64,000 nt of DNA from an uncultured Verrucomicrobiota bacterium (GCA_946055075.1 CAMGEN010000001.1:17137-81136); one strand, 5' to 3'. Counted from the first letter of the stretch, positions 31,193-52,237 are shown. Numbers and translations are program-made. The notes: generated by a model from the letters alone, not told the origin.

Positions 31193-31241
31193 AATTCCCC
31201 ATTCCCCATTCCCTATTCCCCATTCCCCATCCCCATTCCCC
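31193..31241. repeat. CATTCCC heptamer array, 7 copies, immediately upstream of the queD start
   Basis: The sequence cattccccattccctattccccattccccatccccattcccc creates a spurious N-terminal extension in the ORF track (31155). Confidence 0.65.
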
Positions 31242-31658
31242 ATGACCACCGTTACCAAGACCGTCAAGTTCGATGCCGCGCACATCCTCACCAATCATGA
31301 GGGCCTCTGCCGTAATCTTCATGGACATACCTACCGCGTAGACGTCTCCGTCTCCTGTGATGATCCGTTGGCGGAGGGCGGCATGGTCATCGATTTCAAA
31401 GAGTTGAAACGCATTGCAACCGCGGAGATCTGCGACAGGTTCGATCATGCCTTCATCTACAACACCGCTTCCGAGGGCGAGCGCGAAATCGCGGCCGTTG
31501 TTGAGAAGCACGGCATGCGCACGGTTGCACTTCCGTATCGCTCGACGGCTGAGAATCTAGCCAGGCATTTCTTTGAGATACTGACTCCGCTGATTGCCGG
31601 ACTCTCTGCGGTTACGGTTTGGGAGACCGCTGATTCTTCGGCGACTTACCGGGGTTGA
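31242..31658 (+). CDS. queD: 6-carboxy-5,6,7,8-tetrahydropterin synthase (QueD / PTPS family)
   Basis: 139 aa from the ATG at 31242. MTTVTKTVKFDAAHILTNHEGLCRNLHGHTYRV carries the Cx5HxH Zn motif. Confidence 0.8.
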   Translation: MTTVTKTVKFDAAHILTNHEGLCRNLHGHTYRVDVSVSCDDPLAEGGMVIDFKELKRIATAEICDRFDHAFIYNTASEGEREIAAVVEKHGMRTVALPYRSTAENLARHFFEILTPLIAGLSAVTVWETADSSATYRG

Positions 31659-31679: not shown

Positions 31680-31688
31680 TGTTATAAT
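31680..31688 (+). promoter_or_regulatory. extended -10 (TGTTATAAT) upstream of the PAS gene
   Basis: TGnTATAAT at 31680-31688 is 12 nt upstream of the ATG at 31701. Confidence 0.35.
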
Positions 31689-33306: not shown

Positions 33307-34224
33307 GTGAAAGTTAAAATAGTAGATAGAATAGTCGAACTGATTCGGGATACGAGTTCGTCGCTTCCGGAGGATGTCCTCAAGGCCATTCGCTCTGCTT
33401 TTCGTAAGGAAGCGCGCGGTAAAAGTGCCGCGGTCGTGCTGAAGACGATTCTCGATAACTGCGCGCTTGCGAAGCGTGAGTCCACACCGCTTTGTCAGGA
33501 TACCGGTACGCTTGCTTTCTACATCGACGAGTCTCTTAAGCGTAAGGTCACTCCTGCAGTGATCAAGCAGGCTGTTGCCATTGCGACCGAGCGAGGTTAT
33601 CTTCGTAAGAACTGCATTGATTCCGTCACCGGCAGGAGCTATGACGACAACTGCTGCGATGGCGCACCGGTCGTGCACTACGTGCGCGAAATGATGAATG
33701 AGAAATGTGGAATGAGGAATGGCGGAACTGTAACTCTGCTTATGAAGGGCGGCGGGAGTGAGAACATGTCACGGCAGTATTCGCTACCGGATTCGTCGCT
33801 TGGTGCGGGACGCGATCTCGAGGGCGTTCGCAAGTGTATCCTTGACGCGGTCGTGAAGGCTCAGGGGTTCGGCTGCGCGCCTGGTATTCTAGGCGTCTGC
33901 ATCGGCGGGGACCGGGCGACGGCGTACGAGGTCGCGAAAGAGCAGCTGCTGCGTCCGCTCGGGAGCGGAAAGGATTCCGCATCCCCAGTTGGCGGAGTCG
34001 GTTTAGCCGGGGATGCGGAATCCCTTCCGCTCCGTAAGCTTGAGAAACGGATCTTGAAGGAGGCGAACTCGCTGGGGATCGGTCCGATGGGCCTCGGCGG
34101 CAAGACCACGCTACTCGGTGTGAAGATCGCGTCGCGTCCACGCGTTCCGGCATCGTTCTTCGTTACGGTCGCCTACATGTGCTGGGCCTGCCGCCGGCGG
34201 ACGATCGTGGTTCGTGGTTCGTGA
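33307..34224 (+). CDS. class I fumarate hydratase / L(+)-tartrate dehydratase alpha subunit (Fe-S hydro-lyase)
   Basis: 305 aa. It has the CQDTGT and Cys-ligand pattern of the alpha (N-terminal) domain and is a separate polypeptide, as in archaea and anaerobes. Confidence 0.8.
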   Translation: MKVKIVDRIVELIRDTSSSLPEDVLKAIRSAFRKEARGKSAAVVLKTILDNCALAKRESTPLCQDTGTLAFYIDESLKRKVTPAVIKQAVAIATERGYLRKNCIDSVTGRSYDDNCCDGAPVVHYVREMMNEKCGMRNGGTVTLLMKGGGSENMSRQYSLPDSSLGAGRDLEGVRKCILDAVVKAQGFGCAPGILGVCIGGDRATAYEVAKEQLLRPLGSGKDSASPVGGVGLAGDAESLPLRKLEKRILKEANSLGIGPMGLGGKTTLLGVKIASRPRVPASFFVTVAYMCWACRRRTIVVRGS

Positions 34225-34240
34225 TTCGAGGTTCGTGGTG
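34205..34240. repeat. GGTTCGT heptamer array spanning the alpha-subunit stop and the alpha/beta intergenic gap
   Basis: The sequence cgtggttcgtggttcgtgattcgaggttcgtggtg encodes the C-terminal ...RRRTIVVRGS of the alpha subunit. Confidence 0.6.
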
Positions 34241-37231: not shown

Positions 37232-37259
37232 TGAATTTGGTATAATATTACCAAAATTT
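37232..37259 (+). promoter_or_regulatory. extended -10 promoter TTTGGTATAAT embedded in a near-perfect palindrome (aatttggtaTAATATtaccaaaatt)
   Basis: TATAAT is at 37242-37247. The flanking arms aatttggta / taccaaaatt are inverted repeats, giving a possible operator overlapping the promoter of the Fic gene. Confidence 0.45.
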
Positions 37260-37270
37260 GAGAGCACGAT

Positions 37271-38163
37271 ATGGGCGAAGATCAGTGGGGTAAATATCTG
37301 CGGGCTAAGGAGCCGGGGGTGCGCGAGAAGGCGTACGCCTGGAAGACGGCGTCTTTGAATTCGCGGGACGTATTCGGGACTATGACATCACTAAGGATGA
37401 ATGGGTGCTTGACGGCGATACGGTGCGGTATGGTTCGTCTTATCGCCTGATGGAGATGTTGACGTTTGACATCAAACAAGAACGCGAGTTCTCGTATGTC
37501 GGACTAACCGAGTCGGAAATCATTCGTCACATTTCCCGATTTACATCTAACCTCTGGCAGATTCATGCCTTTGGTGAAGGGAATACGCGCACGACGGGAG
37601 TCTTTGTCATCAAGTATTTGCGGACGCTCGGCTTTGATGTCGCGAATGACGTTTTCGCCGAGAACGCTTGGTATTTCCGTAATGCGCTCGTCAGGGCGAA
37701 CTATACGAACGTGCCGAAGGGGATTGAGGAGACGACGGAATATCTGGAGTTGTTCTTCCGCAATCTGCTGTTAGGCGAGTCGAATGTTTTGCAAAGTCGC
37801 TATTTGCTTGTGGGAGGATGGAAAGGGTCTGACGACCCTACAAGCAACATTATGACCCCCGCAAGTAACGTCGACACCCCCGCAAGTAAAAGCATGACCC
37901 CCACAAGTAATAGCAGTGGAAACTGGGCGTTGTCTAAAGCGGTCAAACGGCTTTTGCTTGTTCTTGGTGATGATGAATTGACGAGAGAGCAGTTGATGAG
38001 GTCTTTGAAGCTCAAGGATCGTAAGAATTTTTCTGAATACTCGTTGGGACCGGCGCTCAAGATCGGTCTTGTCGAGATGACCCAGCCCGACAGTCCGCGC
38101 TCGCCAACACAGCGTTATCGTCTGACCGCCAGCGGTCAAAAGGCGAAGAAGAGCTGCGTATAA
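37271..38163 (+). pseudogene. Fic/DOC-family protein gene with a disrupted N-terminus (frameshift plus probable internal deletion), FGEGNTRT-type Fic motif, C-terminal wHTH
   Basis: The ATG at 37271 opens frame 2, which encodes MGEDQWGKYLRAKEPGVREKAYAWKTA (a classic Fic N-terminus). It then runs into nonsense and a stop near 37448. Frame 1 continues from about 37350 with FEFAGRIRDYDITKDEWVLDGDTV...HAFGEGNTRTTGV...; the ORF track starts this part at GTG 37405. The about 60 aa that normally separate AYAWKTA from F(E/D)G..D.AG are missing. Confidence 0.5.
37836..37915. repeat. three 21-bp tandem repeats inside the Fic gene
   Basis: (a)tgaccccc(g/a)caagtaa... occurs three times and encodes TSNIMTP/ASNVDTP/ASKSMTP. 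Confidence 0.5.
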
Positions 38164-38223
38164 TTTCGATGCCATACGGCAGTCGCTTATTCTCCCCGAT
38201 TTTCCCTCCCCCGAAGTCGGTTC

Positions 38224-38234
38224 TTTGGTATAAT
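38224..38234 (+). promoter_or_regulatory. extended -10 promoter TTTGGTATAAT giving a leaderless transcript for the CARF operon
   Basis: TATAAT is at 38229-38234 and the ATG at 38244, 9 nt downstream, with no SD. The ORF-track start at 38169 lies upstream of the promoter. Confidence 0.5.
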
Positions 38235-38243
38235 AGTGCCGCT

Positions 38244-39380
38244 ATGCGAGTTGATAAACGCACGATTCTGATTGCGGGGATGGGGACATCACCCGCGGTC
38301 CTCACCGAAACGGTGTGGGCGCTTTGCCATCAGAAGAACCCGATGGTGCCGGACGAGATCGTGGTGCTGGTCACGAAGTCTGGCAAGGAGCGGCTTTGCG
38401 ATGAGCTGTTGTCTGGTGAGAAGTCGGTTTGGGGTCAGATGCTTGCCGCGCTAAAGAAAGAAAAGATCAAGATTGATGGCAAATTGATCTTTGGAGATAC
38501 TTCAATCCGTGTTATTCCCGACGAACGCGGCAATGGTATCGCGGACCTTCGTTCTGGCGATGACAATCTTCGTGCGGCGGATTTCATGCTGCAGCAGGTC
38601 CGTCAGTACACCGAATCTCCGGACACGGTGGTGCTGGCGTCTATTGCCGGCGGACGCAAGACGATGAGCGCATTGCTGTTTTCCTGCATGAGCCTGCTGG
38701 GCCGCGAGGACGATAAGGTTTTTCACGTTCTCTTGCCGCCGGAATTTGAAGGCGGCGTTGAACCGCCGATGTACTATCCGGTGAAGGGCGTGACCTACGT
38801 CAATCGTAGGACCAAAATGAAGTACAAGAGCGACAAATACAAGAGCGAGCTGTTCGAGGTTCCGTTCGTCCGTATGCGCGGCTGGTATCAGGAGAAGTTC
38901 AAGACGATTCCGCCGTCTTACCGTACGCTGATCGAAAAGGTGCAGGACGCGGCACCGAAGGCCGTGGTTTATCCGAAGATCGAGATCGACGCGGCAAATG
39001 GCACGGTCAAGCTGAACGGTGCGCACGTCGCTTTGAGTAAGACCAATTTCGCCGCGCTTTATTTGATCGCTAATGGCTGTCCAATGAAAGACCTCCACGC
39101 GAAGCTCGTCGAGCTTCACAACGACCATAGTGACAAGCGCATCGACTGGCTTGACACTTTCCGCGAGGGCTCCCGCTTCGCCCGTATTGATGACATCGAC
39201 GATCTGCGCAAGACACTTTCGGAACTCCGCAAGAAGCTCCAGTCCGCCGGCTTCGTCAACGCCGAAACCCTCGTTCCCCAGCGCGGCAACCCGGTGACGT
39301 TCCCGATGGGGAAGATCAATTGCCTGGACAAGAAACTTAGGGATGTCCGCGGATGTCTTTTATTACGAAGGGACGCCTGA
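38244..39380 (+). CDS. CARF-domain protein with C-terminal winged-HTH-like domain (Csa3-like cyclic-oligonucleotide sensor/regulator)
   Basis: 378 aa from the ATG at 38244. The first strand/loop reads TILIAGMGTSPAVLTETVWAL (CARF GxSP motif). A second CARF signature, VVLASIAGGRKTMSALL, matches the D(L/V)TGGTKxMS sensor loop. The C-terminal part, VKLNGAHVALSKTNFAALYLIANGCPMKDLHAKLV, looks like an HTH. Confidence 0.7.
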   Translation: MRVDKRTILIAGMGTSPAVLTETVWALCHQKNPMVPDEIVVLVTKSGKERLCDELLSGEKSVWGQMLAALKKEKIKIDGKLIFGDTSIRVIPDERGNGIADLRSGDDNLRAADFMLQQVRQYTESPDTVVLASIAGGRKTMSALLFSCMSLLGREDDKVFHVLLPPEFEGGVEPPMYYPVKGVTYVNRRTKMKYKSDKYKSELFEVPFVRMRGWYQEKFKTIPPSYRTLIEKVQDAAPKAVVYPKIEIDAANGTVKLNGAHVALSKTNFAALYLIANGCPMKDLHAKLVELHNDHSDKRIDWLDTFREGSRFARIDDIDDLRKTLSELRKKLQSAGFVNAETLVPQRGNPVTFPMGKINCLDKKLRDVRGCLLLRRDA

Positions 39381-39381
39381 A

Positions 39382-41148
39382 ATGAACTATACTATACCCC
39401 GGAAACGCGAGTTGAGGCGAGAAATGGGTGTGATCTACATGGCTTTGGATGCCGTTACGAAATTTATGGCCAAATGGCTAGATGATAATCTGAAAACGTT
39501 GTCTTCGGATTATTGGGATAGGTATGTCGTTTCATCACTTTACGAGTCTCAGAGGAAGACCTTGGCGGAGAATGGTGCTAAGTCTTTGTTTGATTTGGAC
39601 CAGCCTACGATTTTGAGTGTTTTCCTTCAAAACAAGCAATTGCTTACTAGTAAGTTCGGAGTCGATCAACAGCTGTTTGGGGATGCCCATCGGATTAAAG
39701 ACATACGAAATAAGTATTTCCATAAAAATTCTAAACCTTTGGCCGCTAGTAGATATAAGCATGATCTTGGGACTATGAAATTGTTCTTGGAGGGACTTGG
39801 CGCGCCGGCAGACGTTGTTGCTGATATATGTGATTCGTGTGATAATGAGGGTGAAACGCCATCGGTGTCGTCGCGTGTAAATGACACGGTTATAAAGATT
39901 CCTGTTCCGCGGGTTGATAGCGCGATAGCTGTTGGAGTAAATTCTGATGCAAAGGGTACCCAGAGGCAAAAAGATATTGTAAGAGCAGTGAAAGTTGTTC
40001 GTAATTCGCCTCTTGCTGTTGGGGCTATGCCGCAAACGCTGTTTAGTGAATCAAGCCTGTTGTCCATGTGGCATAGGCCAGATGAGCTTTATGCAAGCAT
40101 TAAGAATTGTCTCAAGTTGGATTTTGACGAGTATAAATTTGGGAAGTGTTTGCTATATAGGCCAGAAGACAGGGTGCCCTCGGAATTGTCACTAGGTACT
40201 GGGTGGCAATGGGCAATTGTATTGCAAATATTCGAGGCTGATAAGGTTCGCATTGCCAAGGAGATAGCTAAGTTCAATCGTTTTGACGTGGAATGCAGCG
40301 TAACAGGAGATTATGCGGTGTGGAAATATGCATCGCCTCAAGGCAATCACGAAAGGGCCGCCGAAATTTCACAAATTGTATTTTTGCCTAACTGGTATGT
40401 AGATGCAATTGCGTCAACTCGCGGAGCAAAATATCAGAGGGATCGTTTAGGGGTTCGTCAAACCTTACAGGCTTCAGATGATGTGCGACGATTATATCTA
40501 GGAACATATGCGCCGCGTTCATTTGCGGAAATGGTGGCCATAGCAGATTATACATTTTCAATGCATCCTGAATGTGTAAAGAATCTCGGCGCGGAGATTT
40601 CTATTTGCGATCTTGGAAGCGGTAGTGGTCCGGCGACAATGGGGTTAATTTGGAGCCTGAAGAAGCTACGGCTGAGCTCTATTAGAAGAATTGTTGTCTA
40701 TGCCATAGATGGTAATGATTCAGCGTTGAAATTATTTGAGGAATTGTTGCATAGATTGCGTGGCGCTTGGGAGTCGGTTGAAATAGTTCTAAAGGCAGAG
40801 CGTAGTTTGTTGGATGACCAGACATTCGTGCCCTGTTGCTCGCAGGTGGATTTTGTAATATCTTCAAAATTTGTTCAAGAATTGCATTCGGAGAATGATA
40901 TTGGGCAGATGGAACAAATGGCTAATGCTATTTTGAAAACGGGTGGGATTTCCTACTGGATGGCGAATCCGGGAATCAATCTTGGTGCCGATAAACAGAT
41001 GGCGGCTTCAACATGCGGTAATGAAGTTATTGTGTCAAAAATAGGATTGAATATTCGAGTGTGCGGTATTCGTGGATGCGATGAATCTGTTGAAGAGGCA
41101 ATCTCCTTTAAGGTCGAAAGAAAGCTAACATCTAAATTAGGAGGATAA
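39382..41148 (+). CDS. HEPN-domain (Rx4H) N-terminus fused to a class I SAM-dependent methyltransferase domain
   Basis: 589 aa from the ATG at 39382, 1 nt after the CARF stop. The N-terminal IKDIRNKYFHKNS has the HEPN R-N-x3-H motif. The C-terminal ICDLGSGSGPATMGL (motif I) and VVYAIDGNDSAL (motif II) mark a Rossmann MTase. No NPPY/DPPW motif was seen. Confidence 0.6.
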   Translation: MNYTIPRKRELRREMGVIYMALDAVTKFMAKWLDDNLKTLSSDYWDRYVVSSLYESQRKTLAENGAKSLFDLDQPTILSVFLQNKQLLTSKFGVDQQLFGDAHRIKDIRNKYFHKNSKPLAASRYKHDLGTMKLFLEGLGAPADVVADICDSCDNEGETPSVSSRVNDTVIKIPVPRVDSAIAVGVNSDAKGTQRQKDIVRAVKVVRNSPLAVGAMPQTLFSESSLLSMWHRPDELYASIKNCLKLDFDEYKFGKCLLYRPEDRVPSELSLGTGWQWAIVLQIFEADKVRIAKEIAKFNRFDVECSVTGDYAVWKYASPQGNHERAAEISQIVFLPNWYVDAIASTRGAKYQRDRLGVRQTLQASDDVRRLYLGTYAPRSFAEMVAIADYTFSMHPECVKNLGAEISICDLGSGSGPATMGLIWSLKKLRLSSIRRIVVYAIDGNDSALKLFEELLHRLRGAWESVEIVLKAERSLLDDQTFVPCCSQVDFVISSKFVQELHSENDIGQMEQMANAILKTGGISYWMANPGINLGADKQMAASTCGNEVIVSKIGLNIRVCGIRGCDESVEEAISFKVERKLTSKLGG

Positions 41149-41151
41149 GCA

Positions 41152-42351
41152 ATGGCACGTCCGATGTATGTTAAGGTATCTGACATTCAGAAAGATGACG
41201 ATCAGTATAGAATTTACAACTTACCGCCAGACGCAAAGTATGTTGTTTCCGGTTGCGCGGGGAGTGGCAAGTCATCGCTCGCGTTGTTGTTCCTTGAAAG
41301 AGCCTTGCAAAGTGGTGAGGATGATAATACTCCGAATCAAGTATATTACATTGCGACGGTACATGAACTTGTTGAATGCGTTAGGAAACAGTTTGCTCGC
41401 TTTGCCACTGTTCCTAAATATAATGATTATGCTATAACTGGAGCGGCGTGGGCAGCCGGCAGCATATCTGATTTGCAACGTCGGGGTCAAAATCAGCACG
41501 GACCGTTTTTGATTCGTGGAAGGGAATGTATGAAATGCAATCCGCGTGGGTACAATAATGATTGGATTGATTTGAAAATTAACAAGCAACCCGATTATCT
41601 GCTAATTGATGAGGCGCAGGATTTTGATTTGCCGACACTAAAGAGCTTCGCTTCGTCGGTGAATAAGGGGTGCGTATTTTACGGAGATGATGCACAGAAG
41701 ATAATTGCTAATGGAACAAATTTAGACGACCTTTGCGCGGAGCTTCGAATTCAACGGCATTGTCTGAAGCGGAATTGGCGACTTTCCAAGGAGGTTGCGA
41801 AATTTGCTCAAGAGCTTCCTGGTAAAAAAGCAGATGATGATTTTGTAAGAAGATGCCGCGGAGAATACCAAGAAAAGCCGATTGTTTATGGATGTGCTAA
41901 TGAAGACATGATGGTGCAGTATATTCTGGAACGATGCCAAAAGGCAACAGTGGATGATGATATAGGTATTGTTTTGAGGAGTAATCAACAAATTCATAGA
42001 TGGTATCAGCACTTTAAGAACGTGCTTGGTGATAATATGGTTTCGGCTAGATACAGTTATGATACACTCTCGCCATTTGGAATTCCGACATCGCATTATG
42101 ACTATTTGCGGGAAACGCCTGTGAAAATTGTGCGTTATGAGGATGCAAAGGGACAGCAGTTTCGCGATGTTTATGTAATTGCAGATGATGCACTTATGAA
42201 TGATCCGTTAGGGATGAGTTGCTTTTACGTCGGTGTGACGAGGGCAGAACGCTACTTATATGTGCTGTATCAGGGTGGTAAACCAGCATTCCTTGAGAAC
42301 GTCGATCCTGATGTATACAGAACTTCAGATGTTAAGGAAATCAATTTCTAA
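41152..42351 (+). CDS. compact UvrD/Rep-like superfamily-1 helicase/ATPase
   Basis: 399 aa. Walker A VVSGCAGSGKSS, Walker B/motif II DYLLIDEAQDF, motif III VFYGDDAQKI and motif VI SCFYVGVTRAERYLYVLY. Confidence 0.65.
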   Translation: MARPMYVKVSDIQKDDDQYRIYNLPPDAKYVVSGCAGSGKSSLALLFLERALQSGEDDNTPNQVYYIATVHELVECVRKQFARFATVPKYNDYAITGAAWAAGSISDLQRRGQNQHGPFLIRGRECMKCNPRGYNNDWIDLKINKQPDYLLIDEAQDFDLPTLKSFASSVNKGCVFYGDDAQKIIANGTNLDDLCAELRIQRHCLKRNWRLSKEVAKFAQELPGKKADDDFVRRCRGEYQEKPIVYGCANEDMMVQYILERCQKATVDDDIGIVLRSNQQIHRWYQHFKNVLGDNMVSARYSYDTLSPFGIPTSHYDYLRETPVKIVRYEDAKGQQFRDVYVIADDALMNDPLGMSCFYVGVTRAERYLYVLYQGGKPAFLENVDPDVYRTSDVKEINF

Positions 42352-42356
42352 TAGTC

Positions 42357-44183
42357 ATGAAATACTACTTCCCGACCTCAACGTTGAATTTTGATGCGAT
42401 AGCATCTTCTATGTGCATTATGCCGGCTTCGTTTTACAGAGATGGAGCAGTTGGGTTTTCCCGCTATACGCGGAGCGCGGTTGATCGTGATGATAATAGC
42501 TGCTATTTGTATTCCCGACCAATTACATGGAATCATTCTATGAGTGATTCCGTTGACTATCCCATGCTGGTTGAGATAGAAGATGATAAACTGTCACTTA
42601 TTGGAAGGAAATGTGAGATGACTGGAGATGTTGACGTAATTCGTATTACTTCTCCATATTATTTTACGGCATCGAGTATTGTCACGCGGCGCATTCGGTT
42701 TTTGTTTAGGAATCAGGATGAACTTAAACTGATAGTCAATCGCACTCGGGCTAACGTGGCGGAGTGCAAAAGTCTTGGTGTAGCCGAGGCGTGGGGCGTG
42801 GATAACTTTGCAGTGATTGAAGGTGTTGACAAGCTTGTTGACTTTAACACGCTTAATGGCGGAATGATGTTCACGCAGGAGGATGGCAGTATGTGTCAAC
42901 CAGGAATATGGTCTGACTATGTGTATCAAGACCGGCTCGATGGCGCAAGGGTCGGCTTTAGGGCTGGGCAGTGGTTTCGCGCCATTATCACGGGGAAATT
43001 TATTGACACGATGCGAGAGCCGCTGACGTTTGAAATATGGCGGGATTCGTTGACACCCGAGTTTAATGCGCTTTTGGATATGATTTGCGGGGATGAGAAA
43101 CTCAAGTGGGATGTAAATCGTGATGCGGTTGTGGATTTCTGTGCCAGATGCTGGAAGGAGTGTCTTGCGAAGTCACATGATGAGGCAAGGCATGAAATAT
43201 TGAGATGTATAGCGAGGAGCATTGCCGACACAAGATATGTGTATCCTATAGATAGGATTCAAGATCCAGAAATGCAGGCCTTGGCGTGCTTCGTTGCCGC
43301 TGGGAAGCGAGAGGGGACGCTTGTAAATTTGCTGAAAACAGAACATATTCAGCTTCCTGAACTTGCTTTGTCGTTGCATGGCGCACTTGTTGGATACTCA
43401 ATTATGTCGCGGGCGCTATTTGAGAAAAGAAGTTATATTGACGAGGAAGCGAAATCGGAAGACGCGCCAATGGCACGAGGTGCAGCGAAGCAAAAATCTC
43501 CTGCGATAGATATGCAAGGACAAGAAGCTTCTCTTGGAATAAAGACCCAGGCCAATGTCTCGTGTGAGTCTTCTGGCGGAGATTTACCAGGATGGGCCAG
43601 ACAGATTTGGGAGAATGTCAAGGGTCTCGTTAGTTTCGCCAAGATCAAGGGGAAGAAGCGGGTACAGGTTGAGAAGGCTCTGTTTCAGGCGCTGAGTGAA
43701 TGCAAGGATGAGCGTGCGTTGTTGCGAGTCCTTCCCGGAAAGTATCAAGCTGATGGCTGGGGACGTCGGACTGCGCTTTATAAGGATTTGAAGAACTCAA
43801 TAGAAGTGGCGAAAGCTGGAATGCCAATAGATGGGGATTTGTTCAACCAGTCGAGTATGCTCAAGTCATTCGATTCTCGTTTGTTGATATATGATCAAGG
43901 GTTGATGGAAGAAATAGCAAAGCGATTTGCAAATATTGGAGACGAAAGGCTTCGGCTGTTACGAGACGTTGTGAGAAAGTTTGTTGCGAAATATGTTGCA
44001 GGTTACTACGGGCAACATCCGGATAGATACAAACAGGAAAATTCGGACCTGATTGATCATATGATCAAATGCTTTATTTCGCCAATCACTCCAGATTTGA
44101 ACTTTAAGTTTGAAGGAGATGAGGAAAATTCATTCGTTGCATTTCTCGAAGAACGATATCATTGTAAAAGAAATACGCATTGA
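42357..44183 (+). CDS. large hypothetical protein of the island operon (no recognisable domain)
   Basis: 608 aa, low GC and soluble. No motif was recognised by eye. Confidence 0.5.
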   Translation: MKYYFPTSTLNFDAIASSMCIMPASFYRDGAVGFSRYTRSAVDRDDNSCYLYSRPITWNHSMSDSVDYPMLVEIEDDKLSLIGRKCEMTGDVDVIRITSPYYFTASSIVTRRIRFLFRNQDELKLIVNRTRANVAECKSLGVAEAWGVDNFAVIEGVDKLVDFNTLNGGMMFTQEDGSMCQPGIWSDYVYQDRLDGARVGFRAGQWFRAIITGKFIDTMREPLTFEIWRDSLTPEFNALLDMICGDEKLKWDVNRDAVVDFCARCWKECLAKSHDEARHEILRCIARSIADTRYVYPIDRIQDPEMQALACFVAAGKREGTLVNLLKTEHIQLPELALSLHGALVGYSIMSRALFEKRSYIDEEAKSEDAPMARGAAKQKSPAIDMQGQEASLGIKTQANVSCESSGGDLPGWARQIWENVKGLVSFAKIKGKKRVQVEKALFQALSECKDERALLRVLPGKYQADGWGRRTALYKDLKNSIEVAKAGMPIDGDLFNQSSMLKSFDSRLLIYDQGLMEEIAKRFANIGDERLRLLRDVVRKFVAKYVAGYYGQHPDRYKQENSDLIDHMIKCFISPITPDLNFKFEGDEENSFVAFLEERYHCKRNTH

Positions 44184-45151
44184 TGGATTATAATGGGATG
44201 TTGAAGCCTGTGATTGTATCCGCGAGTCGCTCGACGGATATTCCTGCTTTTTATGCAGATTGGTTCTTGGAGCGGCTGAGGGCGGGATATTGCAATTGGG
44301 TGAATCCGTTTAATCGGGAAGTGTTTCGGGTTTCGTTTGAAGATGTTCGGATGATTGTGTTTTGGTCAAAGAACCCAAAGCCGATGATTGAACGGTTGGA
44401 TGAGCTGGAGGCGCTTGGATTTAAGAATTACTATTTTCAGTTTACACTGAATGACTATGTGCGTGAAGGTCTTGAGCCGAATGTCCCGCCGGTCGAGAAT
44501 CGGATTGAGACGTTTAAGGTCCTTGCGAAGCGAATTGGCAAGGAACGTGTAATCTGGCGATATGATCCGTTGATTCTTTCCGATGATTTATCGGTTGATG
44601 CTCTTCTGGAGCGTATCGCGAGAATAGGCAAGGAGTTGCGTGGGTCAACTGAGAAGCTTATTTTCAGTTTCGCAGATATACAGGATTATCGGAAGGTTGC
44701 TAAAAATCTGGCGGGGACCACTTGTCGCGAATTCACGGCCGCGGAAAAGATTGTGTTTGCCAAAGGGCTGCGCGAGATCAATCTTGATTTGGGGTTGGAA
44801 ATGGCGACTTGCGCGGAGGACATTGATCTTTCTGTATACGGTATTAAGCATAACAAGTGCGTCGATGATGAGCTGATGATGCGCCTGTTCAACACGGATT
44901 CCAAGCTGATGGAGTTTATCGGCGCGGAATACGACATGATTGATGGCTGGTTGATTAAGAAATCCAAGAAGGACAAAGGCCAGCGCAAAGCGTGTGGCTG
45001 CGTGATCAGCAAGGACGTCGGCATGTACAACACTTGTCCGCATCTTTGCAAATATTGCTATGCAAATGCTTCGGATGCTATTGTAATGAGGAATTTTAAG
45101 CATTGCAGTGAACGCCAGTATGACGATCTTCTGGTTTGTGAATTAGGATAA
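44180..45151 (+). CDS. DUF1848-like protein with C-terminal Cys cluster (CxCx12CPHxCxYCYAN)
   Basis: 323 aa. The C-terminal ACGCVISKDVGMYNTCPHLCKYCYANASD is a five-Cys metal/Fe-S-like cluster typical of the DUF1848 family. It overlaps the upstream gene by 4 nt. Confidence 0.5.
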   Translation: MMDYNGMLKPVIVSASRSTDIPAFYADWFLERLRAGYCNWVNPFNREVFRVSFEDVRMIVFWSKNPKPMIERLDELEALGFKNYYFQFTLNDYVREGLEPNVPPVENRIETFKVLAKRIGKERVIWRYDPLILSDDLSVDALLERIARIGKELRGSTEKLIFSFADIQDYRKVAKNLAGTTCREFTAAEKIVFAKGLREINLDLGLEMATCAEDIDLSVYGIKHNKCVDDELMMRLFNTDSKLMEFIGAEYDMIDGWLIKKSKKDKGQRKACGCVISKDVGMYNTCPHLCKYCYANASDAIVMRNFKHCSERQYDDLLVCELG

Positions 45152-45155
45152 GGAC

Positions 45156-45575
45156 ATGGATGCAATACCACTTAGATGGCTTGAAAAGGCGAGGTCGGAA
45201 ATTGATGCGTATGATCAGTTTGTGTCGGCATACATCGCAATGAACTATCTTTATGGTGGTCGGAGCGAATCGTCTGAATTGAAGCGATTTGTGAATTGCG
45301 CAATGGAGATTTGTGAAATGTCCAACGTTGATCCCTTTTCGTTCGAACATACGGAATATTTGGCTGACGGCGTATTGAATATGCACCCCAAACATGTTGG
45401 AGAGCGTGTTGCGGTCATTTCTGGAGATCGAGTTTCATTGTTCTCTGCGATTTACTTGGTTCGATGTAATTTGTTTCATGGAAATAAAGATGTTGCGTGC
45501 GAGCGAGACATGCGTTTGTCGGCGCAAGGTGGAGGAATCTTAATTGGGATTTTAACAGCGCTTAGTCACGCGTGA
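45156..45575 (+). CDS. small HEPN-domain protein (RxxxxHG motif)
   Basis: 139 aa. LFSAIYLVRCNLFHGNKD contains an Rx4HG HEPN catalytic motif. It is the last gene of the operon. Confidence 0.55.
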   Translation: MDAIPLRWLEKARSEIDAYDQFVSAYIAMNYLYGGRSESSELKRFVNCAMEICEMSNVDPFSFEHTEYLADGVLNMHPKHVGERVAVISGDRVSLFSAIYLVRCNLFHGNKDVACERDMRLSAQGGGILIGILTALSHA

Positions 45576-45670
45576 GTTTCTGGGAGTGGATATCTGCGGA
45601 TATCCAATTGGCTGTATGCGGGACGTAGATATGAGATACTACCCTTGTCAACGAAAGAAAGGACAAGGGA

Positions 45671-46036
45671 ATGTACGAGTTTCATGGAACAGTTAAGCGT
45701 GTGGGTGAACTTCAGAAGTTCTCCAGCGGATTTGAGAAGCAGGATCTGATTGTCGAAGAAGACAAAGACGGCAGCTGGCCGAATGTGGTTGCTTTCACGT
45801 TTAAGAAGAATGCGATTTCAAAATTGGCGGGTGTAACCGCAGGCGCTCATGTAAAAGTTGGTTTTGTTATCGATGGTCGCGAGTGGACCGATTCCAAGAC
45901 GGGCAAGGTGAAATATTTCTCAGACTTGACCGCTTTGAGGCTGGAGGTTGATGGTCATCGCGAACTTGTACCTGAACCTGCGGATCCGCCAGGAGGGGAT
46001 CCTTTTGCGGATGATAACGAGGAACCCCCATTCTAA
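45671..46036 (+). CDS. DUF3127-family small protein with SSB-like acidic C-terminal tail (..DDNEEPPF)
   Basis: 121 aa. The FSSGF.K.DL...FTFKKN...GxxVKVxFxIDGREWTDSKTGKVKYF core is OB-fold/SSB-like. It is a paralogue of 56066-56452. Confidence 0.55.
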   Translation: MYEFHGTVKRVGELQKFSSGFEKQDLIVEEDKDGSWPNVVAFTFKKNAISKLAGVTAGAHVKVGFVIDGREWTDSKTGKVKYFSDLTALRLEVDGHRELVPEPADPPGGDPFADDNEEPPF

Positions 46037-46471: not shown

Positions 46472-46500
46472 CATGAACGGGATCGGTGGGTGGGTTAACG

Positions 46501-47652
46501 ATGTTTACAGATAGAGAGCTTGAGCTCGTCAAGGAATTCGACGCGGAAGATTATGATGGCTTTCTGCGCGAATCGGCGGACGTGAAGTCCGAGTGGATCC
46601 TTGGGTATTATCGGTTTTGCTGCTTCGCGTACGGACGTGGAGTTCCGCGAGATCGGATCGCTGCGCGAAAAGAACTTGTACCCGTACTGGGCAAGATCGT
46701 CGCTGAAGCCGAATCCGGTGACGGTGTGGCACAGAACACGATGGGGGTCCTGATGGAGTTCGGATATCCTACGGAATCCGGATTCGTGCCTCCTGACGCC
46801 GTGTCCGCTAAGAAGTGGTATCTGCGTTCGGCGGAGTCCGGCTGCGTCAAGGGGCAGTACAATTACGGAAGAATGTGCAAGGATGGAAAGGGTGGCGGTA
46901 GAGATGCTGAAGAAGCCTTGAAATGGTGGCGGGCGAGCGCTGACCAGGGGGATTCAAAGACGCAGTATGCACTTGCAAGATATCTTTCACAACTACGGAA
47001 GACTTCTGAAGCAGGGCTTATCGCCCGGTATTTACGGAGTGCGGCGGCGGCAGGTCTGGCAGATGCGAGCAGAGTCGTTGGACATTGCGCGGACGACTTG
47101 TCGGATTCCCGGGTCTATGCAGAGCTGTTGATCGACATTGCCGGGCAGGAGCTGAAACGGCGTCGCGATCCTTTCGTGGGTGTGTGTTTCAGTATAAACG
47201 TATCAGACGACAGTTGGCTGCTGGCAAATCAGCCCAAAGGATCGAAGGTGCCGCCGGCTGGAGAGCCTGGTAAGGTCGCGATTCCGGACCTGAAACGGAC
47301 TAATGCATCGTTTTCGGCGATGCTGATAAAATATGTCAGAGATCGGTTCGGAGGTGATGCGCCTAGTGTGTATCGTGCGGCTCGTATCAACCGTAAAACA
47401 TATTCGGCCATCATCAGTAACGAACTTCGCGCCGTATCCAAGCGAACGGCGGTTGCTTTTGCGTTTGCGCTGAGACTGTCGCGAACAGAGGCGGATGAAT
47501 TGCTACGGACAGCAGGATTTGCATTCTCGATGTCGATTTTGGAGGATATAATCTTCGGTGCCTGTATTGACGCTGGCATTTATGATCTTGCGCGGGTGAA
47601 TCAGATTCTTGTGAATCATCAAGCGCGTCCATTCCCAGATCCTGAGGATTGA
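46501..47652 (+). CDS. Sel1-repeat protein with C-terminal XRE-type HTH
   Basis: About 383 aa. Sel1-like repeats (A.KWY.RSAESG..KGQYNYGRMCKDGKG, ALKWWRASADQGDSKTQYALA) are followed by an HTH (YRAARINRKTYSAIISNE...RTAVAFAFALRLSRTEADELL). Confidence 0.55.
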   Translation: MFTDRELELVKEFDAEDYDGFLRESADVKSEWILGYYRFCCFAYGRGVPRDRIAARKELVPVLGKIVAEAESGDGVAQNTMGVLMEFGYPTESGFVPPDAVSAKKWYLRSAESGCVKGQYNYGRMCKDGKGGGRDAEEALKWWRASADQGDSKTQYALARYLSQLRKTSEAGLIARYLRSAAAAGLADASRVVGHCADDLSDSRVYAELLIDIAGQELKRRRDPFVGVCFSINVSDDSWLLANQPKGSKVPPAGEPGKVAIPDLKRTNASFSAMLIKYVRDRFGGDAPSVYRAARINRKTYSAIISNELRAVSKRTAVAFAFALRLSRTEADELLRTAGFAFSMSILEDIIFGACIDAGIYDLARVNQILVNHQARPFPDPED

Positions 47653-47721
47653 CGTTTTCAGGACCATGTAAGATCGTCGTGTCCGCGGTGAGTAAGGGTT
47701 GGTTCTAGTGATGTTTGGGTT

Positions 47722-49176
47722 ATGGAAAATGATGTAAATATGATGATCTGCGCTGATTGCGGGAAAGAATATGACGCTTCGGCGCCGTGCTGTCCGGAAT
47801 GCGGGCTGCCGGTGTCCGGAGTAATGCCGGATGTCAAGATGATCGAGATCTCGAAAATGGGTAATCCGTACTGGGGACGGTACCGAGAAGTGCAAGACCG
47901 ATCCCAAATCAATCATGACAGCGGGGCCGGAATCGTGGAGTTCTTCGACGAGGTCGCCGATTCTGCGGATGCAGGCGATCTGATGGCCAAGTATTTCCTC
48001 GCGACGGAGGTGTTTAAAGGCGAAAAGCATCAGCGTCGGGCGTATGAGCTGCTGAAGGAGGCGTCAGATGCCGGCAGTTCGATGGCGGAGAACGAGCTCG
48101 GATCGATGTATTGCCGGGGTGCTTATGTCGCTAAGGACTTCGGCGCCGCGACGCGGTATTTTCGTCGTGCGGCGATGAGGGGTGATCCCGTCGCGATGCG
48201 TAATCTCGGCGACCGTTATCTTTCCGGAGAAGGCGTCCGCCATGACACGGCTAAAGCGATAGCCTGTTTCGAACAGTCGTATGCGAGCGGCTGGTGGAGG
48301 GCGGCAAGGGATCTTTCGGACGTGTATTCGAGTCCGGACTACGGTTGCGTCGATTATGCGAAAGCCGTGATGTACGCGAGGTTCGCCGCGAACGCCGGAG
48401 ATGCGGAAAGCAAGTACCGGATGTACGAGCTCTACATGAACGGACAGGGCGTTGAACGCGACCCTGGCGGAGCATTAGTGTGGTGCCTGCAGGCGGCTGA
48501 AGAATTTTATGTCCCAGCGATGGAGACGATGGCGCTCTTCTATGAAAGAGGCGTCGTGGTCAAGGCCGATTATTCGGAAGCGTTCAAGTGGTACGAGAAG
48601 GCTGCCGCCGGCGGTTCGAATTGGGCGAAGCTCCAGCTTGCGGTTTATCATAATCTCGGGATCGTGGGCGAAGAGAATCCGTCGCGCGCGTATTATCTCG
48701 CGATGAGTGCGTTGGATTCGGGATATAATGAGGCCCTGTGGCAGGTGTCGTATCATTTCCGGACCGGACGGGGCGTGCGCCAGGATACGGCCAAGGCGGA
48801 CGAATATCTTAGGCGCGCGCTGAACGAAGGCACTCAGTTCGCGTGGCGGGCGTGCAAGCCCGAGACCGCTCGTCACGAACTTGAGATTCGGATGCGCTGG
48901 GCTGGAAAGGACAAGGATCGGCTATCCAGGATTGTCGACTGGCTGGAGCGGAGCGATTGCCCGGATGAGGCGCGGGAAATTCGTTCGAAGCATCCGGAGA
49001 TTACGGAAGTGCGGCCGGAGGAGCATCGGAAGCACGTGACGCCTTGCCTATGGCGGAAAGATTCGACGCCGTCCGCGGCCCTTGTGTCCGATGGCTTTAA
49101 GTTCATACGCCGTGTGATTGCGGTGGTAATCGGCGCGTTTCTGATCGCGCTGGCGAAGCAGCTGTTTGTGTTATAA
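47722..49176 (+). CDS. zinc-ribbon + Sel1-repeat protein with C-terminal TM anchor
   Basis: 484 aa. An N-terminal CADCG...CCPECG zinc ribbon, at least 6 Sel1-like repeats, and a terminal hydrophobic helix (VIAVVIGAFLIALAKQLFVL). Confidence 0.55.
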   Translation: MENDVNMMICADCGKEYDASAPCCPECGLPVSGVMPDVKMIEISKMGNPYWGRYREVQDRSQINHDSGAGIVEFFDEVADSADAGDLMAKYFLATEVFKGEKHQRRAYELLKEASDAGSSMAENELGSMYCRGAYVAKDFGAATRYFRRAAMRGDPVAMRNLGDRYLSGEGVRHDTAKAIACFEQSYASGWWRAARDLSDVYSSPDYGCVDYAKAVMYARFAANAGDAESKYRMYELYMNGQGVERDPGGALVWCLQAAEEFYVPAMETMALFYERGVVVKADYSEAFKWYEKAAAGGSNWAKLQLAVYHNLGIVGEENPSRAYYLAMSALDSGYNEALWQVSYHFRTGRGVRQDTAKADEYLRRALNEGTQFAWRACKPETARHELEIRMRWAGKDKDRLSRIVDWLERSDCPDEAREIRSKHPEITEVRPEEHRKHVTPCLWRKDSTPSAALVSDGFKFIRRVIAVVIGAFLIALAKQLFVL

Positions 49177-49233
49177 TTAAGGAGAAGGAAAGATGATCGG
49201 TGCAATTGTCGATTTCACAGGAGGGATGATAAG

Positions 49234-49875
49234 ATGCGTTTGATTTTTGTGTTGTCGCTGGTTATGTCCGTATTTTGCGGTTGCAGGTATGAACGGGTAA
49301 TCTTGCCAGGAATTCCGTATGCGTCGGAACCGAAAAACGCAGAACTGCTTTATGAAGTTGACGACCTTGCGCTTTTTGCAGGCAAAACGGAATCGGATAT
49401 TGCTTTTAACAAGTCGAATGATTGGCTCCAGCGCAATTCTCTATTCATGCGACGGTGCATGGAATCGGGGCGGGAAGAGTGGCGTCTTATAATGACGGCG
49501 GAAGGCGATTGGAAGCTTGCAGAGGGTATGGGCAAGTGGTGTAATGACCGAGCGAAAGACGCAAGACGGGACTTCTGTGTTATGAAGGCCAGCTTGTCAA
49601 AAGATCGGAAGACGGTCTGGATGGTTTGCGATCCGCACATCGGCACATATTACATCGTCGGTCGGCTCGATCTTAATACAAACACATTTCGGGTGTTGAT
49701 GGATGGAGACACGGCTGAAGAGCAGTCGGATGGTACGATTTTGGTTAAGGGCAAGAAGACGTATCTCAATGATGAGAACGGAGAGTCGCTTGGCGCGGCG
49801 TGGTACGATCTTTGGATGACACCCGATGGTAAAGTCATTCGAAAGACGAAACCCTTGACCGCCGACCAGTTGTAG
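49234..49875 (+). CDS. lipoprotein (duplicated module, copy 1)
   Basis: 213 aa. A lipobox (SVFCGC). The mature part is 100% identical to 52303-52944. Confidence 0.6.
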   Translation: MRLIFVLSLVMSVFCGCRYERVILPGIPYASEPKNAELLYEVDDLALFAGKTESDIAFNKSNDWLQRNSLFMRRCMESGREEWRLIMTAEGDWKLAEGMGKWCNDRAKDARRDFCVMKASLSKDRKTVWMVCDPHIGTYYIVGRLDLNTNTFRVLMDGDTAEEQSDGTILVKGKKTYLNDENGESLGAAWYDLWMTPDGKVIRKTKPLTADQL

Positions 49876-49900
49876 GACGAATAGCAAAGAGAGAATGAAA
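49276..49900. repeat. 625-bp perfect direct repeat, copy 1
   Basis: It is identical to 52345-52969 (offset 3069 bp), including 25 bp beyond the stop codon. Identical antisense ORFs are seen in the track. Confidence 0.9.
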
Positions 49901-49912
49901 AGGAGAAATAAA

Positions 49913-52237
49913 ATGAAGAAGCTGATTGTCGTGAGTTTTGCGCTGGTGGTTTTTGTTACGGGATGTAATGTGAAAGATGACGAGCAGAAAGTGCCGGTGG
50001 CTGCGGGATTCGAGATTCCCCGGTCGTTGGTGACACGAATGCTGGATGCGCATGATCGGGCAAGGAATAGAACCGCGGGGAGAGGCACTGACTTCGATTC
50101 GGCGGAAATGATCTCGCTGGCGAACGGACCGAAGCTGCTAAACGGACTGGAGCTGACGAATGCGCTGGAGATCGCAAGCCGTCCGCGCGGCGAGATGAAG
50201 TTCTGCGATGACGGTCTTCCTGATTCCGAACGTCATGATCTCTGGCCGTTTGAAATCGAGAAGTTCGAGGCGGAGCTGGAGTCGAAGATGGAGGTTTCGG
50301 CGGAATATGGCTATCAGATGAAGCCCCAGTTTGAAAAATTGGCCGGGAGTGTCGGGAGGGGAGGTTTCGGACAAGGCAATCAGACTCTGCAGTGGGTCAA
50401 TAGGGAAGTCGAGCAGTGGGCTGTCAAGGAACTGGACAAGGAATTCGGCCGGGTTGAAGCCGCGGAGTTCTGCGCGACATTCCGTTTTGAGGAAATGCCG
50501 GAGGGCGTTTCCGCGTGGCAGGTTGGGGCGGAGCTATATCTCATCATACGGCGCGGCGAAGAGGCGTGGGAGCCGCGCGAGTATGAGTTTGTGCGTTGTA
50601 AGGAAGGTCGCGCGCCGCATCACGTGGCCACATTCGATTCGTTTCCCGGTGCCATGGCGGTAGCTGCCGTGTTCCGGTGCAATCATGACGTTGCGGGTGG
50701 TCACAATGTTGCCGCCATGATATGGAATCACCAGTGTGATCGGGTGCAAATGAGCCCTTATCGAATCTATGACCTGCTGTTGGATGCTTCCTGTGGCGGG
50801 ATTGTGACGGCAAAGGAGAATCTTGAGGTTATGCGGAAGCATATGCCCGAGGTCGTTTGCCTGGATGAGGTGATGTTGCGGGAGGCGTCGCGGCTGTCGG
50901 ATGTCGAGGCGAAGCAGGTCAGGATCCTCCGTACGGGGGTAGTGGGATCGTCAAATGCGTCGACCGACAGTCCCAATGGGGTTTTCTGTCCGGGGCTTGG
51001 TTTTGCGAAGGACGTGTTATGGGAGGAGCCTGACGATGACGTGAGGAACGACTCGCGAGGTGAGCTTTTGGTCGACTTGTTCAACATGACGACAAACAGG
51101 GCGGTTCGGCTTGTGACGTTCACCTTGCGGAAAAAGTTGATGCGCGTGATAAAGGAGAGTCGGCGGATGCAGCCTGTCAGGGAAGATGAGGAAGTCGTTT
51201 GTTCGCGAGTTTTCATTCGGCCGGGGGGTGCGTTTAAGGCGCGAGTCGAGTTCAAGCCGCAGGTTGTCGATGACAAGTCGAAATATGCGGTCGACTTCAA
51301 GCTGGAGATCAAGGAGGTTTACGGATGCGAGAGCAGCGAGGACGAATGGTGTCCGAAAAACAGTCTTCGGGTGAAGAGCGGATCGTTTCGGGATCCCAAG
51401 CCGGGAGACGTGGTGACGCTCGTGTTTACGAATGACGTCGAGATGGCGTTTTGTTGGTGTCCCGCGACGACGAGCCCGGAATGGATGCTGATATCTGGCG
51501 GAAAGGACTATTTCATGATGGGCTGTCCGACAAACGAATTGGGTGCGGTAGGTGACGAGACACTTCATCCTGTTATGCTGACGAGAGGTTTTTGGATAGC
51601 GCAAACGCCAATGACCGAGCGGCAGTTTCTGGCGGCAGGCGGCAAGCTGAGTTCTCCGTGGCCGTCACCTGGAGAATTGCCGGTACAGGCATCGTGGTCG
51701 GATTGCAGGGACTGCTGCGCGAACTTGTCGTCGATGGTCCGCAAGCTGCATTTGAGCGTCGCTATGCCGACTGAGGCCGAATGGGAATATGCCTGCCGTG
51801 CGGGGACGACGACGGCGCTGAATAGTGGAAAGGATCTGACATCCGAATTTAACAGGTGCAAGAACATGGATGAAGTCGGGTGGTATGCTCGGTGGCCGGG
51901 TGATTCGATGAATCGCCCATGCGGTGTAAAGCGATTCAAGCCGAACGCCTGGAATGCCTATGACATGCACGGTAACGTTTTCGAGTGGTGTTTCGACGAC
52001 TATGGATGGTTGCCTGGAACTCTTATGGTTGATCCGACCGGTCCTGAACGCGGTTATGTTCATGTTGCCCGAGGAGGCGACAGCACTTCCAATCCGTGTA
52101 ATTGTCGTTCGGCGTCGCGTTGCAGAATATTTAAAGATGAGGCCGGCATTCGTCCGATTATGCGCTACTTCGAGCGGTATGAGGATTTGCTGGGGAGGGA
52201 GTGTGTGAAACGGGCTGACGGTCGAAGGGGCCATTAA
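49913..52237 (+). CDS. lipoprotein with C-terminal formylglycine-generating-enzyme (FGE/SUMF1) domain
   Basis: 774 aa from the ATG at 49913 (SD AAAGGAG). A lipobox (FVTGC). The C-terminal 250 aa, HPVMLTRGFWIAQTPMTERQF...LPTEAEWEYACRAG...AWNAYDMHGNVFEWCFDDYG, matches the FGE-sulfatase fold. The N-terminal 500 aa are unknown. Confidence 0.7.
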   Translation: MKKLIVVSFALVVFVTGCNVKDDEQKVPVAAGFEIPRSLVTRMLDAHDRARNRTAGRGTDFDSAEMISLANGPKLLNGLELTNALEIASRPRGEMKFCDDGLPDSERHDLWPFEIEKFEAELESKMEVSAEYGYQMKPQFEKLAGSVGRGGFGQGNQTLQWVNREVEQWAVKELDKEFGRVEAAEFCATFRFEEMPEGVSAWQVGAELYLIIRRGEEAWEPREYEFVRCKEGRAPHHVATFDSFPGAMAVAAVFRCNHDVAGGHNVAAMIWNHQCDRVQMSPYRIYDLLLDASCGGIVTAKENLEVMRKHMPEVVCLDEVMLREASRLSDVEAKQVRILRTGVVGSSNASTDSPNGVFCPGLGFAKDVLWEEPDDDVRNDSRGELLVDLFNMTTNRAVRLVTFTLRKKLMRVIKESRRMQPVREDEEVVCSRVFIRPGGAFKARVEFKPQVVDDKSKYAVDFKLEIKEVYGCESSEDEWCPKNSLRVKSGSFRDPKPGDVVTLVFTNDVEMAFCWCPATTSPEWMLISGGKDYFMMGCPTNELGAVGDETLHPVMLTRGFWIAQTPMTERQFLAAGGKLSSPWPSPGELPVQASWSDCRDCCANLSSMVRKLHLSVAMPTEAEWEYACRAGTTTALNSGKDLTSEFNRCKNMDEVGWYARWPGDSMNRPCGVKRFKPNAWNAYDMHGNVFEWCFDDYGWLPGTLMVDPTGPERGYVHVARGGDSTSNPCNCRSASRCRIFKDEAGIRPIMRYFERYEDLLGRECVKRADGRRGH

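Follow-up and report, generated by a model that had tools for sequence, protein, structure and literature searches.

A CARF protein with a predicted OmpR/PhoB-type winged helix at the head of a candidate defence operon in an uncultured Verrucomicrobiota bacterium

We analysed a 64,000-nt stretch of DNA from an uncultured Verrucomicrobiota bacterium (GCA_946055075.1, CAMGEN010000001.1:17137-81136; hereafter, the window), focusing on a plus-strand gene at 38244..39380 that encodes a protein of 378 aa plus stop. The protein joins an N-terminal CARF ligand sensor to a C-terminal domain predicted to be a winged helix-turn-helix (CARF-wHTH). The gene heads an operon whose five following genes encode a HEPN protein, a superfamily 1 (SF1) helicase, an orphan protein, a DUF1848 protein, and a 139-aa protein. 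Genes of the operon overlap or lie 1–5 nt apart. The original prediction, a note made from the sequence alone, took the gene for the first of an operon, and its coupling to the downstream genes is tight: the CARF-wHTH stop codon ends at 39380, and the ATG of the next gene is at 39382. We regard the HEPN/SF1-helicase/orphan/DUF1848 cassette as a candidate defence system.

The CARF domain (38256..38867, plus strand; approximately residues 5–208) belongs to the CARF5 clade, an assignment based on PADLOC profile names and the Cad1 papers, and falls squarely within the NE0113/TIGR02584 family. Residues 8–212 match Pfam Cas_NE0113 (PF09623; E-value 1.5e-33, 116.8 bits against a cut-off of 23), the NCBIfam model TIGR02584 is matched over positions 1–205 of 209 (7.5e-49, 166.6 bits against a cut-off of 80.65), and two PADLOC CARF5 profiles match at 2.9e-66 and 2.3e-63. 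A fold comparison recovered the Rossmann-like CARF fold in the N-terminal domain, with Sso2081 as the best structural match, and Cad1 is the nearest solved relative by sequence. With profile matches above curated cut-offs and a fold match, the CARF sensor named in the original prediction stands, and both of its signatures were located: GMGTSPAVLTE at residues 12–22 and ASIAGGRKTMSALL at residues 132–145. The two signatures fall in near-invariant columns, both among 34 homologs and across the 33 related loci described below. Motif I (G14-T15-S16; 38283..38291, plus strand) has the same residues as motif I of the ring nuclease Sso2081 (G9-T10-S11), and motif II (G136-G137-R138-K139; 38649..38660, plus strand) equals its motif II (G104-R105-K106) (PMC10018336), the two proteins being aligned by structure. 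The latter motif also aligns with GGYK106 of TaqCad1; in Cad1, K106A abolishes the degradation of cyclic tetra-adenylate (cA4), consistent with impaired binding (PMC12669630). The motifs are near-invariant regardless of the genes that follow: GT[ST] is found in 31 of the 33 loci (GMS in the other two) and GGRK in 32 (GGRT in one). From this motif identity with cA4-binding CARFs we infer that the domain binds a cyclic oligoadenylate (cOA), and the GTS and GRK motifs suggest that it may be able to cleave its ligand as well as bind it. NCBIfam currently names TIGR02584 'CRISPR-associated ring nuclease Csm6', while the cas_Crn1 profile (NF040581) scored below its cut-off of 125 (12.7 bits, E-value 0.078).

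The C-terminal domain (38964..39329, plus strand; approximately residues 241–362) is predicted to be an OmpR/PhoB-type winged-helix DNA-binding domain with an additional helix. The region has a predicted local distance difference test (pLDDT) score of 80–95 in the structure model. Its modelled topology of three strands, helices at 266–276 and 281–293, an extra helix at 301–308, a long helix at 318–334, and a terminal hairpin reproduces the beta-sheet, alpha1-alpha2-alpha3 core, and C-terminal beta-hairpin wing of the OmpR/PhoB fold. A profile of 23 diverse C-termini (27%–38% identity), searched against all PDB sequences, placed ArlR DNA-binding domains at the top (E-value 0.0025–0.0032), followed by CarR, CpxR, KdpE, RstA, MtrA, PrrA, PhoP, and SaeR; 22 of the 31 hits were response-regulator DNA-binding domains. 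NCBIfam gave weak matches to RstA, PhoB, and VanR around residues 230–277 (E-value 0.01–0.14). The conserved pattern (IEIDxxxGxVxxxGxxVxLSxxxFxxL, an invariant W, SxLRxKL, and PxRGxxxxYP) mirrors that of OmpR/PhoB effector domains, and the domain, 120 aa in length, is kept in essentially every family member. It appears to be specific to the CARF-fused family, since most of the 61 clusters returned by phmmer from 1.8 billion representatives consisted of full-length proteins built in the same way or of short fragments. As modelled, then, this is an OmpR/PhoB-type winged helix, predicted to bind DNA, and not the MarR-like wHTH of Csa3. The Csa3-like architecture proposed earlier thus holds as to plan, with a sensor for a ligand followed by a winged helix for DNA binding at the C-terminus, but not as to parts, the domain being of OmpR/PhoB type and the CARF of the NE0113/CARF5 kind. 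The extra length relative to Csa3 is accounted for by a larger CARF, a linker of ∼30 aa, and, in the winged helix, the insertion that separates helices 2 and 3.

The gene has its own promoter directly before it. An extended −10 element, TGGTATAAT (38226..38234, plus strand), precedes the ATG at 38244 by 9 nt, with the spacer AGTGCCGCT and no Shine–Dalgarno sequence; the TTTGGTATAAT promoter given in the original prediction (38224–38234) is exact, as is its distance from the ATG. A consensus −35/−10 scan did not call the element at 38226, for want of a −35 match. The window contains 10 copies of TGNTATAAT where 0.6 are expected (∼17-fold), a count reached in 0 of 100 shuffles; the sequence is evidently the promoter element that this organism uses. 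Of the 10 perfect copies, four (31680, 38226, 53021, and 57854) stand 6–10 nt before the ATG of an open reading frame (ORF) of 237–569 aa, a layout with a background rate of 1%–3% of positions (P ∼1e-4 to 4e-6 for four out of 10). A one-mismatch copy at 8070 likewise lies 6–10 nt before the ATG of a long ORF, and a minus-strand copy at 1146 comes before an ATG whose ORF continues past the window's edge. The arrangement recurs in two orthologs with unrelated upstream sequences, as TGGTATAAT, 10 nt, and ATG in L008 and as TGCTATACT, 9 nt, and ATG in L012. The 9-nt gap would place the transcription start 0–3 nt before the ATG; that the mRNA is leaderless or nearly so is a reasonable reading, if unproven, and the enrichment of TGNTATAAT and the recurrence of the layout, in the window and in these two orthologs, make the claimed leaderless transcription plausible. 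Leaderless or near-leaderless mRNAs appear to be a habit of this genome (8070, 31680, 53021, and 57854 on the plus strand; 1146 on the minus strand). The longest-ORF starts TTG 31594 and TTG 57824, which lie upstream of the promoters at 31680 and 57854, are probably wrong. The palindromic promoter region that was also claimed is absent: the only nearby palindrome wraps another copy of TGGTATAAT at 37236–37255, and no inverted repeat was found in 38139–38300, as against the palindromic sites of Csa3 type in cas promoters. The autoregulation that the original prediction suggests is putative.

Translation from the ATG at 38244 gives the 378-aa protein, with the N-terminus MRVDKRTILIAGMGTSPAVLTE. 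An alternative in-frame ATG at 38169, 5 nt past the stop codon of an upstream Fic remnant, opens a longer ORF of 403 aa. A protein of exactly this sequence is present in NCBI and ENA records, and a homolog with 95% identity (P0001) was called at 398 aa. Were this the true start, a leadered transcript would run from the promoter near 37238, in line with a terminator scan that was empty between 37246 and 38244, and TGGTATAAT at 38226 would then be coding sequence. We think this quite improbable. Among the best 120 of at least 1,310 homologs, most are 374–382 aa long with N-termini within a few residues of M1, and nothing in them corresponds to the 25 extra residues; because homolog N-termini align with M1, the start at 38244 is favoured. 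Also telling against the longer form are the rarity of TGNTATAAT (10 copies per 64 kb, four of them 6–10 nt before the ATG of a long ORF) and the promoter-to-ATG layout shared by the orthologs in L008 and L012.

We compared the locus with 33 related species-level loci and several metagenome contigs. The 33 loci come mostly from metagenome-assembled genomes (MAGs) of Kiritimatiellia, Lentisphaeraceae, and Verrucomicrobia (gut and rumen), with a few from Bacteroidales; the nearest are Kiritimatiellia MAGs. The CARF-wHTH protein is 50%–83% identical across these loci, and the genes behind it differ. Type III-B CRISPR-Cas genes form the cargo in 12 out of 33, and the HEPN/SF1-helicase/orphan/DUF1848 cassette is found in about 10, with the HEPN and helicase parts fused into one 1,355-aa protein in L038–40. 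Elsewhere the cargo is a TmtA (Tiamat)-like giant protein with a HEPN/MkoA-like (Mokosh-like) helicase (L007, L008, L028, and L037), an NsnB-like ATPase with a PDC-M16B/TOTE protein (L017 and L022), or a vWA protein (L003). Of the loci without Cas10, 17 have a gene for a HEPN protein; in the Cas10 loci there is none within 10 kb. In a neighbour-joining tree of CARF proteins the cargo types are interspersed, and cargo has therefore been exchanged repeatedly behind a conserved head gene; CARF proteins from Cas10-linked and Cas10-free contexts are 60%–66% identical. The CARF-wHTH gene is the first of its operon in the window, as predicted. This position is not universal, because in at least seven loci a gene for an AlbA_2/HATPase_c_4/wHTH protein directly precedes it, often overlapping its start.

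Profile searches identified Cmr2/Cas10, Cmr3, RAMP proteins, Cmr5, and a Card1-like effector in L021 and Cas10 in L024; the other type III-B loci were assigned via homologous clusters. All 12 Cas10 proteins retain GGDD, and 10 of them are short and lack HD; in most of the type III-B loci among L004–L027, Cas10 measures 459–575 aa, keeps GGDD, and has no HD. Such sequence features point to putative signalling-only effectors. CRISPR arrays were found at L014:19369-19943 and L027:10868-11220, and the repeats in type III-B loci end in ATTGAGAC. Between the CARF-wHTH gene and Cas10 lies a gene for a conserved protein of 128–142 aa (…LIGNSFPFSL…VSFWGHENT…FDTCWLLSPDY…GWHVLKLTW; L004:1821-2207, L005:10482-10868, L006:11141-11569, L021:11180-11590, and L027:1269-1676). 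It was considered as Crn2/DUF1874 and rejected, as neither Pfam nor PADLOC matched it; it may be a type III accessory protein not described before. We also noted reverse transcriptase (RT) genes at the islands' 3' ends, irrespective of cargo. The two that were scanned are of UG39 class (L017:16346-18181, PADLOC 3e-131; L038:18125-19666, 1e-97), and homologous genes are present in L001, L007, L009, L022, L037, L039, and L040. The RT of L037 has a DUF3127 gene before it; such a gene is retained in the window (45671–46036), which has no RT.

All five cargo genes of the window lie on the plus strand. The HEPN protein (39382..41148) has a Swt1-like HEPN domain (RNKYFH, that is, Rx4H), a middle region, and a C-terminal part that is tentatively methyltransferase-like; HEPN_Swt1 was matched in eight of nine family members (best E-value 2.4e-5). 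Past the HEPN domain lies a conserved ICDxGxGSGGAxLGL...DGN, which resembles motif I of S-adenosylmethionine (SAM) methyltransferases (ICDLGSGSG in the window's protein), and the profile hints at a methyltransferase domain are weak (E-value ∼0.03). A start at 39343 for this gene was rejected as a frame shadow of the conserved CARF-wHTH C-terminus, leaving 39382 as the probable start. An apparent conserved junction, the MSADVF N-terminus shared by downstream ORFs, proved to be the same C-terminus (DV/ICGCL) read in another frame, and Arg-rich ORFs (c16) were likewise spurious. The helicase (399 aa; 41152..42351) is UvrD-like, with matches to Pfam UvrD_C_2, AAA_30, and AAA_19 and to PADLOC GajB-like and C3a187. 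The orphan protein (608 aa; 42357..44183) had no Pfam, NCBIfam, or PADLOC hit, and its family is rare (30 homologs among 5.8 billion clusters); its members share a strongly conserved N-terminus (MKYYFPTSTLNFD...) and always accompany HEPN, helicase, and DUF1848 genes. A role for it as a cyclase or signal generator was considered and dropped: the AlphaFold2 model (pLDDT 70), built from 21 homologs, is not recognisable as a cyclase and found no matching fold in the PDB (best E-value ∼1). The DUF1848 protein (323 aa; 44180..45151; Pfam 4.8e-98, PADLOC RTasDUF1848 2.2e-40) is 65%–82% identical in related cassettes. DUF1848 proteins and UvrD-like helicases are reported partners of methylase-fused UG25 and UG35 RTs (PMC9226505), and because they accompany those RTs the cassette may be related to UG25/UG35 systems. 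The last tightly packed gene of the operon (45156..45575) starts 4 nt after the DUF1848 gene and encodes the 139-aa protein, for which Pfam, NCBIfam, and PADLOC gave no match.

The GC content is 55%–60% in the housekeeping flanks, ∼54% in the CARF-wHTH gene, and 43%–47% in the cargo (39500–46000), a drop that fits recent acquisition or swap of cargo behind a resident head gene. An Rfam scan of 36–47 kb gave no match. Immediately downstream of the island (46486–52237) are genes for two proteins with Sel1 repeats, for a third protein of 213 aa, and for a fourth of 780 aa whose C-terminal domain is of the FGE-sulfatase (C-type-lectin-like) kind; over these genes the GC skew is as high as in the island (∼0.19–0.28). 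Upstream of the CARF-wHTH gene is an N-terminally truncated, frameshifted Fic-like remnant (37272..38163, plus strand; Fic-like_C 4.2e-25) with a TGGTATAAT promoter of its own at 37238–37246, which sits at 37236–37255 inside a perfect palindrome with 7-nt arms (TTTGGTA-TAATAT-TACCAAA). The ATG at 37272 and the Fic-like ORF (37405–38163) are in different frames, and the gene seems degraded. Its PADLOC PDC-S72 match covers profile positions 134–346 of 377, so that ∼130 N-terminal residues are missing relative to this profile and to the 377-aa Fic proteins of L039 and L040. Short tandem heptamers (e.g., ATTCCCC ×7) occur at or near gene boundaries in the window (31194–31243, 21643–21677, 34205–34239, and 56027–56060).

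With modest confidence, we consider the CARF-wHTH protein most likely to be a transcription factor, self-limiting and responsive to cA4, at the head of defence operons that can be swapped. The CARF dimer would bind cA4 at the dimer interface and, because its GTS and GRK motifs are those of the ring nuclease Sso2081, would probably also degrade the ligand and so reset the regulator. Ligand binding would reposition the OmpR/PhoB-type winged helices through the flexible linker of ∼30 aa and thereby change binding at a promoter that has an extended −10 and no −35. Promoters of this kind are typically activator-dependent. The protein probably switches on the defence genes behind it: transcription would start from TGGTATAAT, 9 nt before the ATG, giving an mRNA that is leaderless or has a 1–3-nt leader, and translational coupling would extend to the HEPN RNase, SF1 helicase, orphan, DUF1848, and 139-aa genes. 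Regulator and cargo, being co-transcribed and coupled, would thus rise and fall together. Where the cargo is type III-B, the circuit would feed back on the signal-making system itself; as the window lacks Cas10, the signal here would have to be made by a type III system in another part of the genome.

Several observations weigh against this regulator. A tblastn search with the type III proteins of related loci found no cas genes and no Cas10 in the window, a direct-repeat scan found no CRISPR array in the 64 kb, and no cyclase is recognisable there, so that the ligand source would lie outside the window. The scan found no terminator between the upstream promoter at 37238 and the CARF-wHTH gene, which makes leadered read-through possible. 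At the promoter (38120–38300), neither inverted nor direct repeats exceed chance, and an enumeration of operator k-mers (7, 8, and 10 nt with 0, 1, and 2 mismatches, respectively) over the 70-nt stretches that precede the −10 in 10 related promoters found no shared motif beyond shuffles. Pfam has no match past residue 217, Trans_reg_C (PF00486) included; sequence-level support for the winged helix is weak (E-value 0.0025), and DNA binding therefore rests mainly on the predicted fold. CARF dimers are two-fold symmetric, and OmpR domains usually sit on direct repeats. Finally, the searchable literature yielded no experimental work on the NE0113/TIGR02584 family.

The empty operator search would suit a protein whose main function is that of a ring nuclease, switching the response off by clearing cA4, with the winged helix serving dimerisation, localisation, or nucleic-acid tethering. 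Much about the CARF points the same way: the GTS and GRK residues are those of motifs I and II in Sso2081 (PMC10018336), Sso2081 also came out best in the structural comparison, NCBIfam names TIGR02584 as a ring nuclease, and the CARF of Cad1, the nearest solved relative, cleaves cA4 (PMC12669630). We nevertheless find it unlikely as the main function, given an OmpR-type domain conserved in essentially every member and a gene at its operon's 5' end, where a regulator would be placed; nor would a ring nuclease have an obvious task in a locus where neither a cOA synthase nor a cOA-activated effector is encoded. One protein could combine the two roles. That same lack of a cyclase, together with the restriction of HEPN proteins, within 10 kb, to Cas10-free loci, could instead mean that the CARF senses something other than Cas10-made cOA, such as RNA ends with 2',3'-cyclic phosphate (2',3'-cP) left by the HEPN RNase, in a self-contained feedback circuit; CoCoNuT superoperons with RtcR-like CARF regulators offer a precedent (PMC11090510). 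This we rate as decidedly improbable, as the ligand-site motifs are the same with or without an active Cas10 and match those of the cA4-binding CARFs Cad1 and Sso2081, and as the CARFs of both contexts, 60%–66% identical, interleave on the tree, which argues for one ligand. The near-identity of the motifs in both kinds of loci likewise favours cOA as that putative single ligand. As the source of the signal we accordingly rank a type III system outside the 64 kb ahead of a different ligand such as 2',3'-cP RNA ends.

Returning to the cA4-responsive transcription factor, a wider role is possible, one we put forward only tentatively: a portable, cOA-responsive master switch through which the recognition of foreign RNA by type III CRISPR-Cas would transcriptionally induce unrelated innate cassettes elsewhere in the genome. 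Such a cOA regulon would take in the HEPN/helicase/DUF1848, Tiamat/Mokosh-like, and NsnB/TOTE-like cassettes, with the ring-nuclease motifs timing the pulse. What is known of cOA signalling is mostly post-translational, the switching of nucleases, proteases, and pores whose genes lie beside Cas10, and to our knowledge transcriptional outputs are documented only for archaeal Csa3. A widespread, highly conserved bacterial CARF-OmpR head gene in front of either type III-B or non-CRISPR operons would, if the idea is true, make cOA also a transcriptional alarm that joins adaptive and innate defence. One regulator and one promoter offer a simple handle for testing it. The arrangement also flags gut and rumen bacteria of the Planctomycetes–Verrucomicrobia–Chlamydiae (PVC) group as bacteria that use leaderless promoters with an extended −10.

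Neither the family nor the general idea is new: NE0113 and Csa3 have been listed as predicted transcription regulators lacking effector domains (Makarova et al. 2014, PMC4012209). For the OmpR-type domain and the non-CRISPR cargo, we found no description in the searchable literature, the 2020 CARF census not being covered. Csa3 (Sso1445, PDB 6WXQ) is an archaeal protein of ∼212 aa whose MarR-like wHTH binds palindromes, and Csa3Sso is without ring-nuclease activity (PMC8844856). The Csa3 logic, a sensor for a ligand coupled to a domain for DNA binding, recurs in the CARF-wHTH protein, which is nevertheless no Csa3: it comes from bacterial hosts, is 378 aa long rather than ∼210–240 aa, has an NE0113/CARF5 CARF with GTS and GRK and an OmpR/PhoB-type domain in place of the MarR-like wHTH, and matches no Csa3 profile in NCBIfam. 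With Cad1 it shares a CARF of the CARF5 clade, but Cad1 is a hexamer with an adenosine deaminase output. With Crn1/Sso2081 it shares the GTS/GRK motifs and the fold; Sso2081 has no output domain, whereas a DNA-binding output is predicted here, and at 378 aa with a second domain the protein differs from a stand-alone, single-domain Crn1 of less than ∼250 aa. The DNA-binding domains of OmpR/PhoB, ToxR, and CadC have the same fold (N-terminal beta-sheet, three helices, and C-terminal wing) and a shared sequence pattern (xIxxDxxxGxVxxxGxxxxLSxxEF...W...LRxKL...PxRGxxY). Unlike OmpR/PhoB, the CARF-wHTH protein has no receiver domain and no phosphorylation, carries an additional helix before the recognition helix, and is too divergent for Pfam Trans_reg_C. 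RtcR, which combines a divergent CARF sensing 2',3'-cP RNA ends with a sigma54 AAA+ ATPase and an HTH, differs from the CARF-wHTH protein in its parts; the latter has canonical cOA-type motifs, an OmpR-type domain, and no ATPase, and profile and fold searches of it found no AAA+ or sigma54-interaction domain. The layout is nonetheless shared with RtcR-like regulators, whose genes also stand 5' of long co-directional defence operons with variable cargo, in which HEPN RNases and Upf1-like or SF1 helicases are common to both (Bell et al. 2024, PMC11090510).

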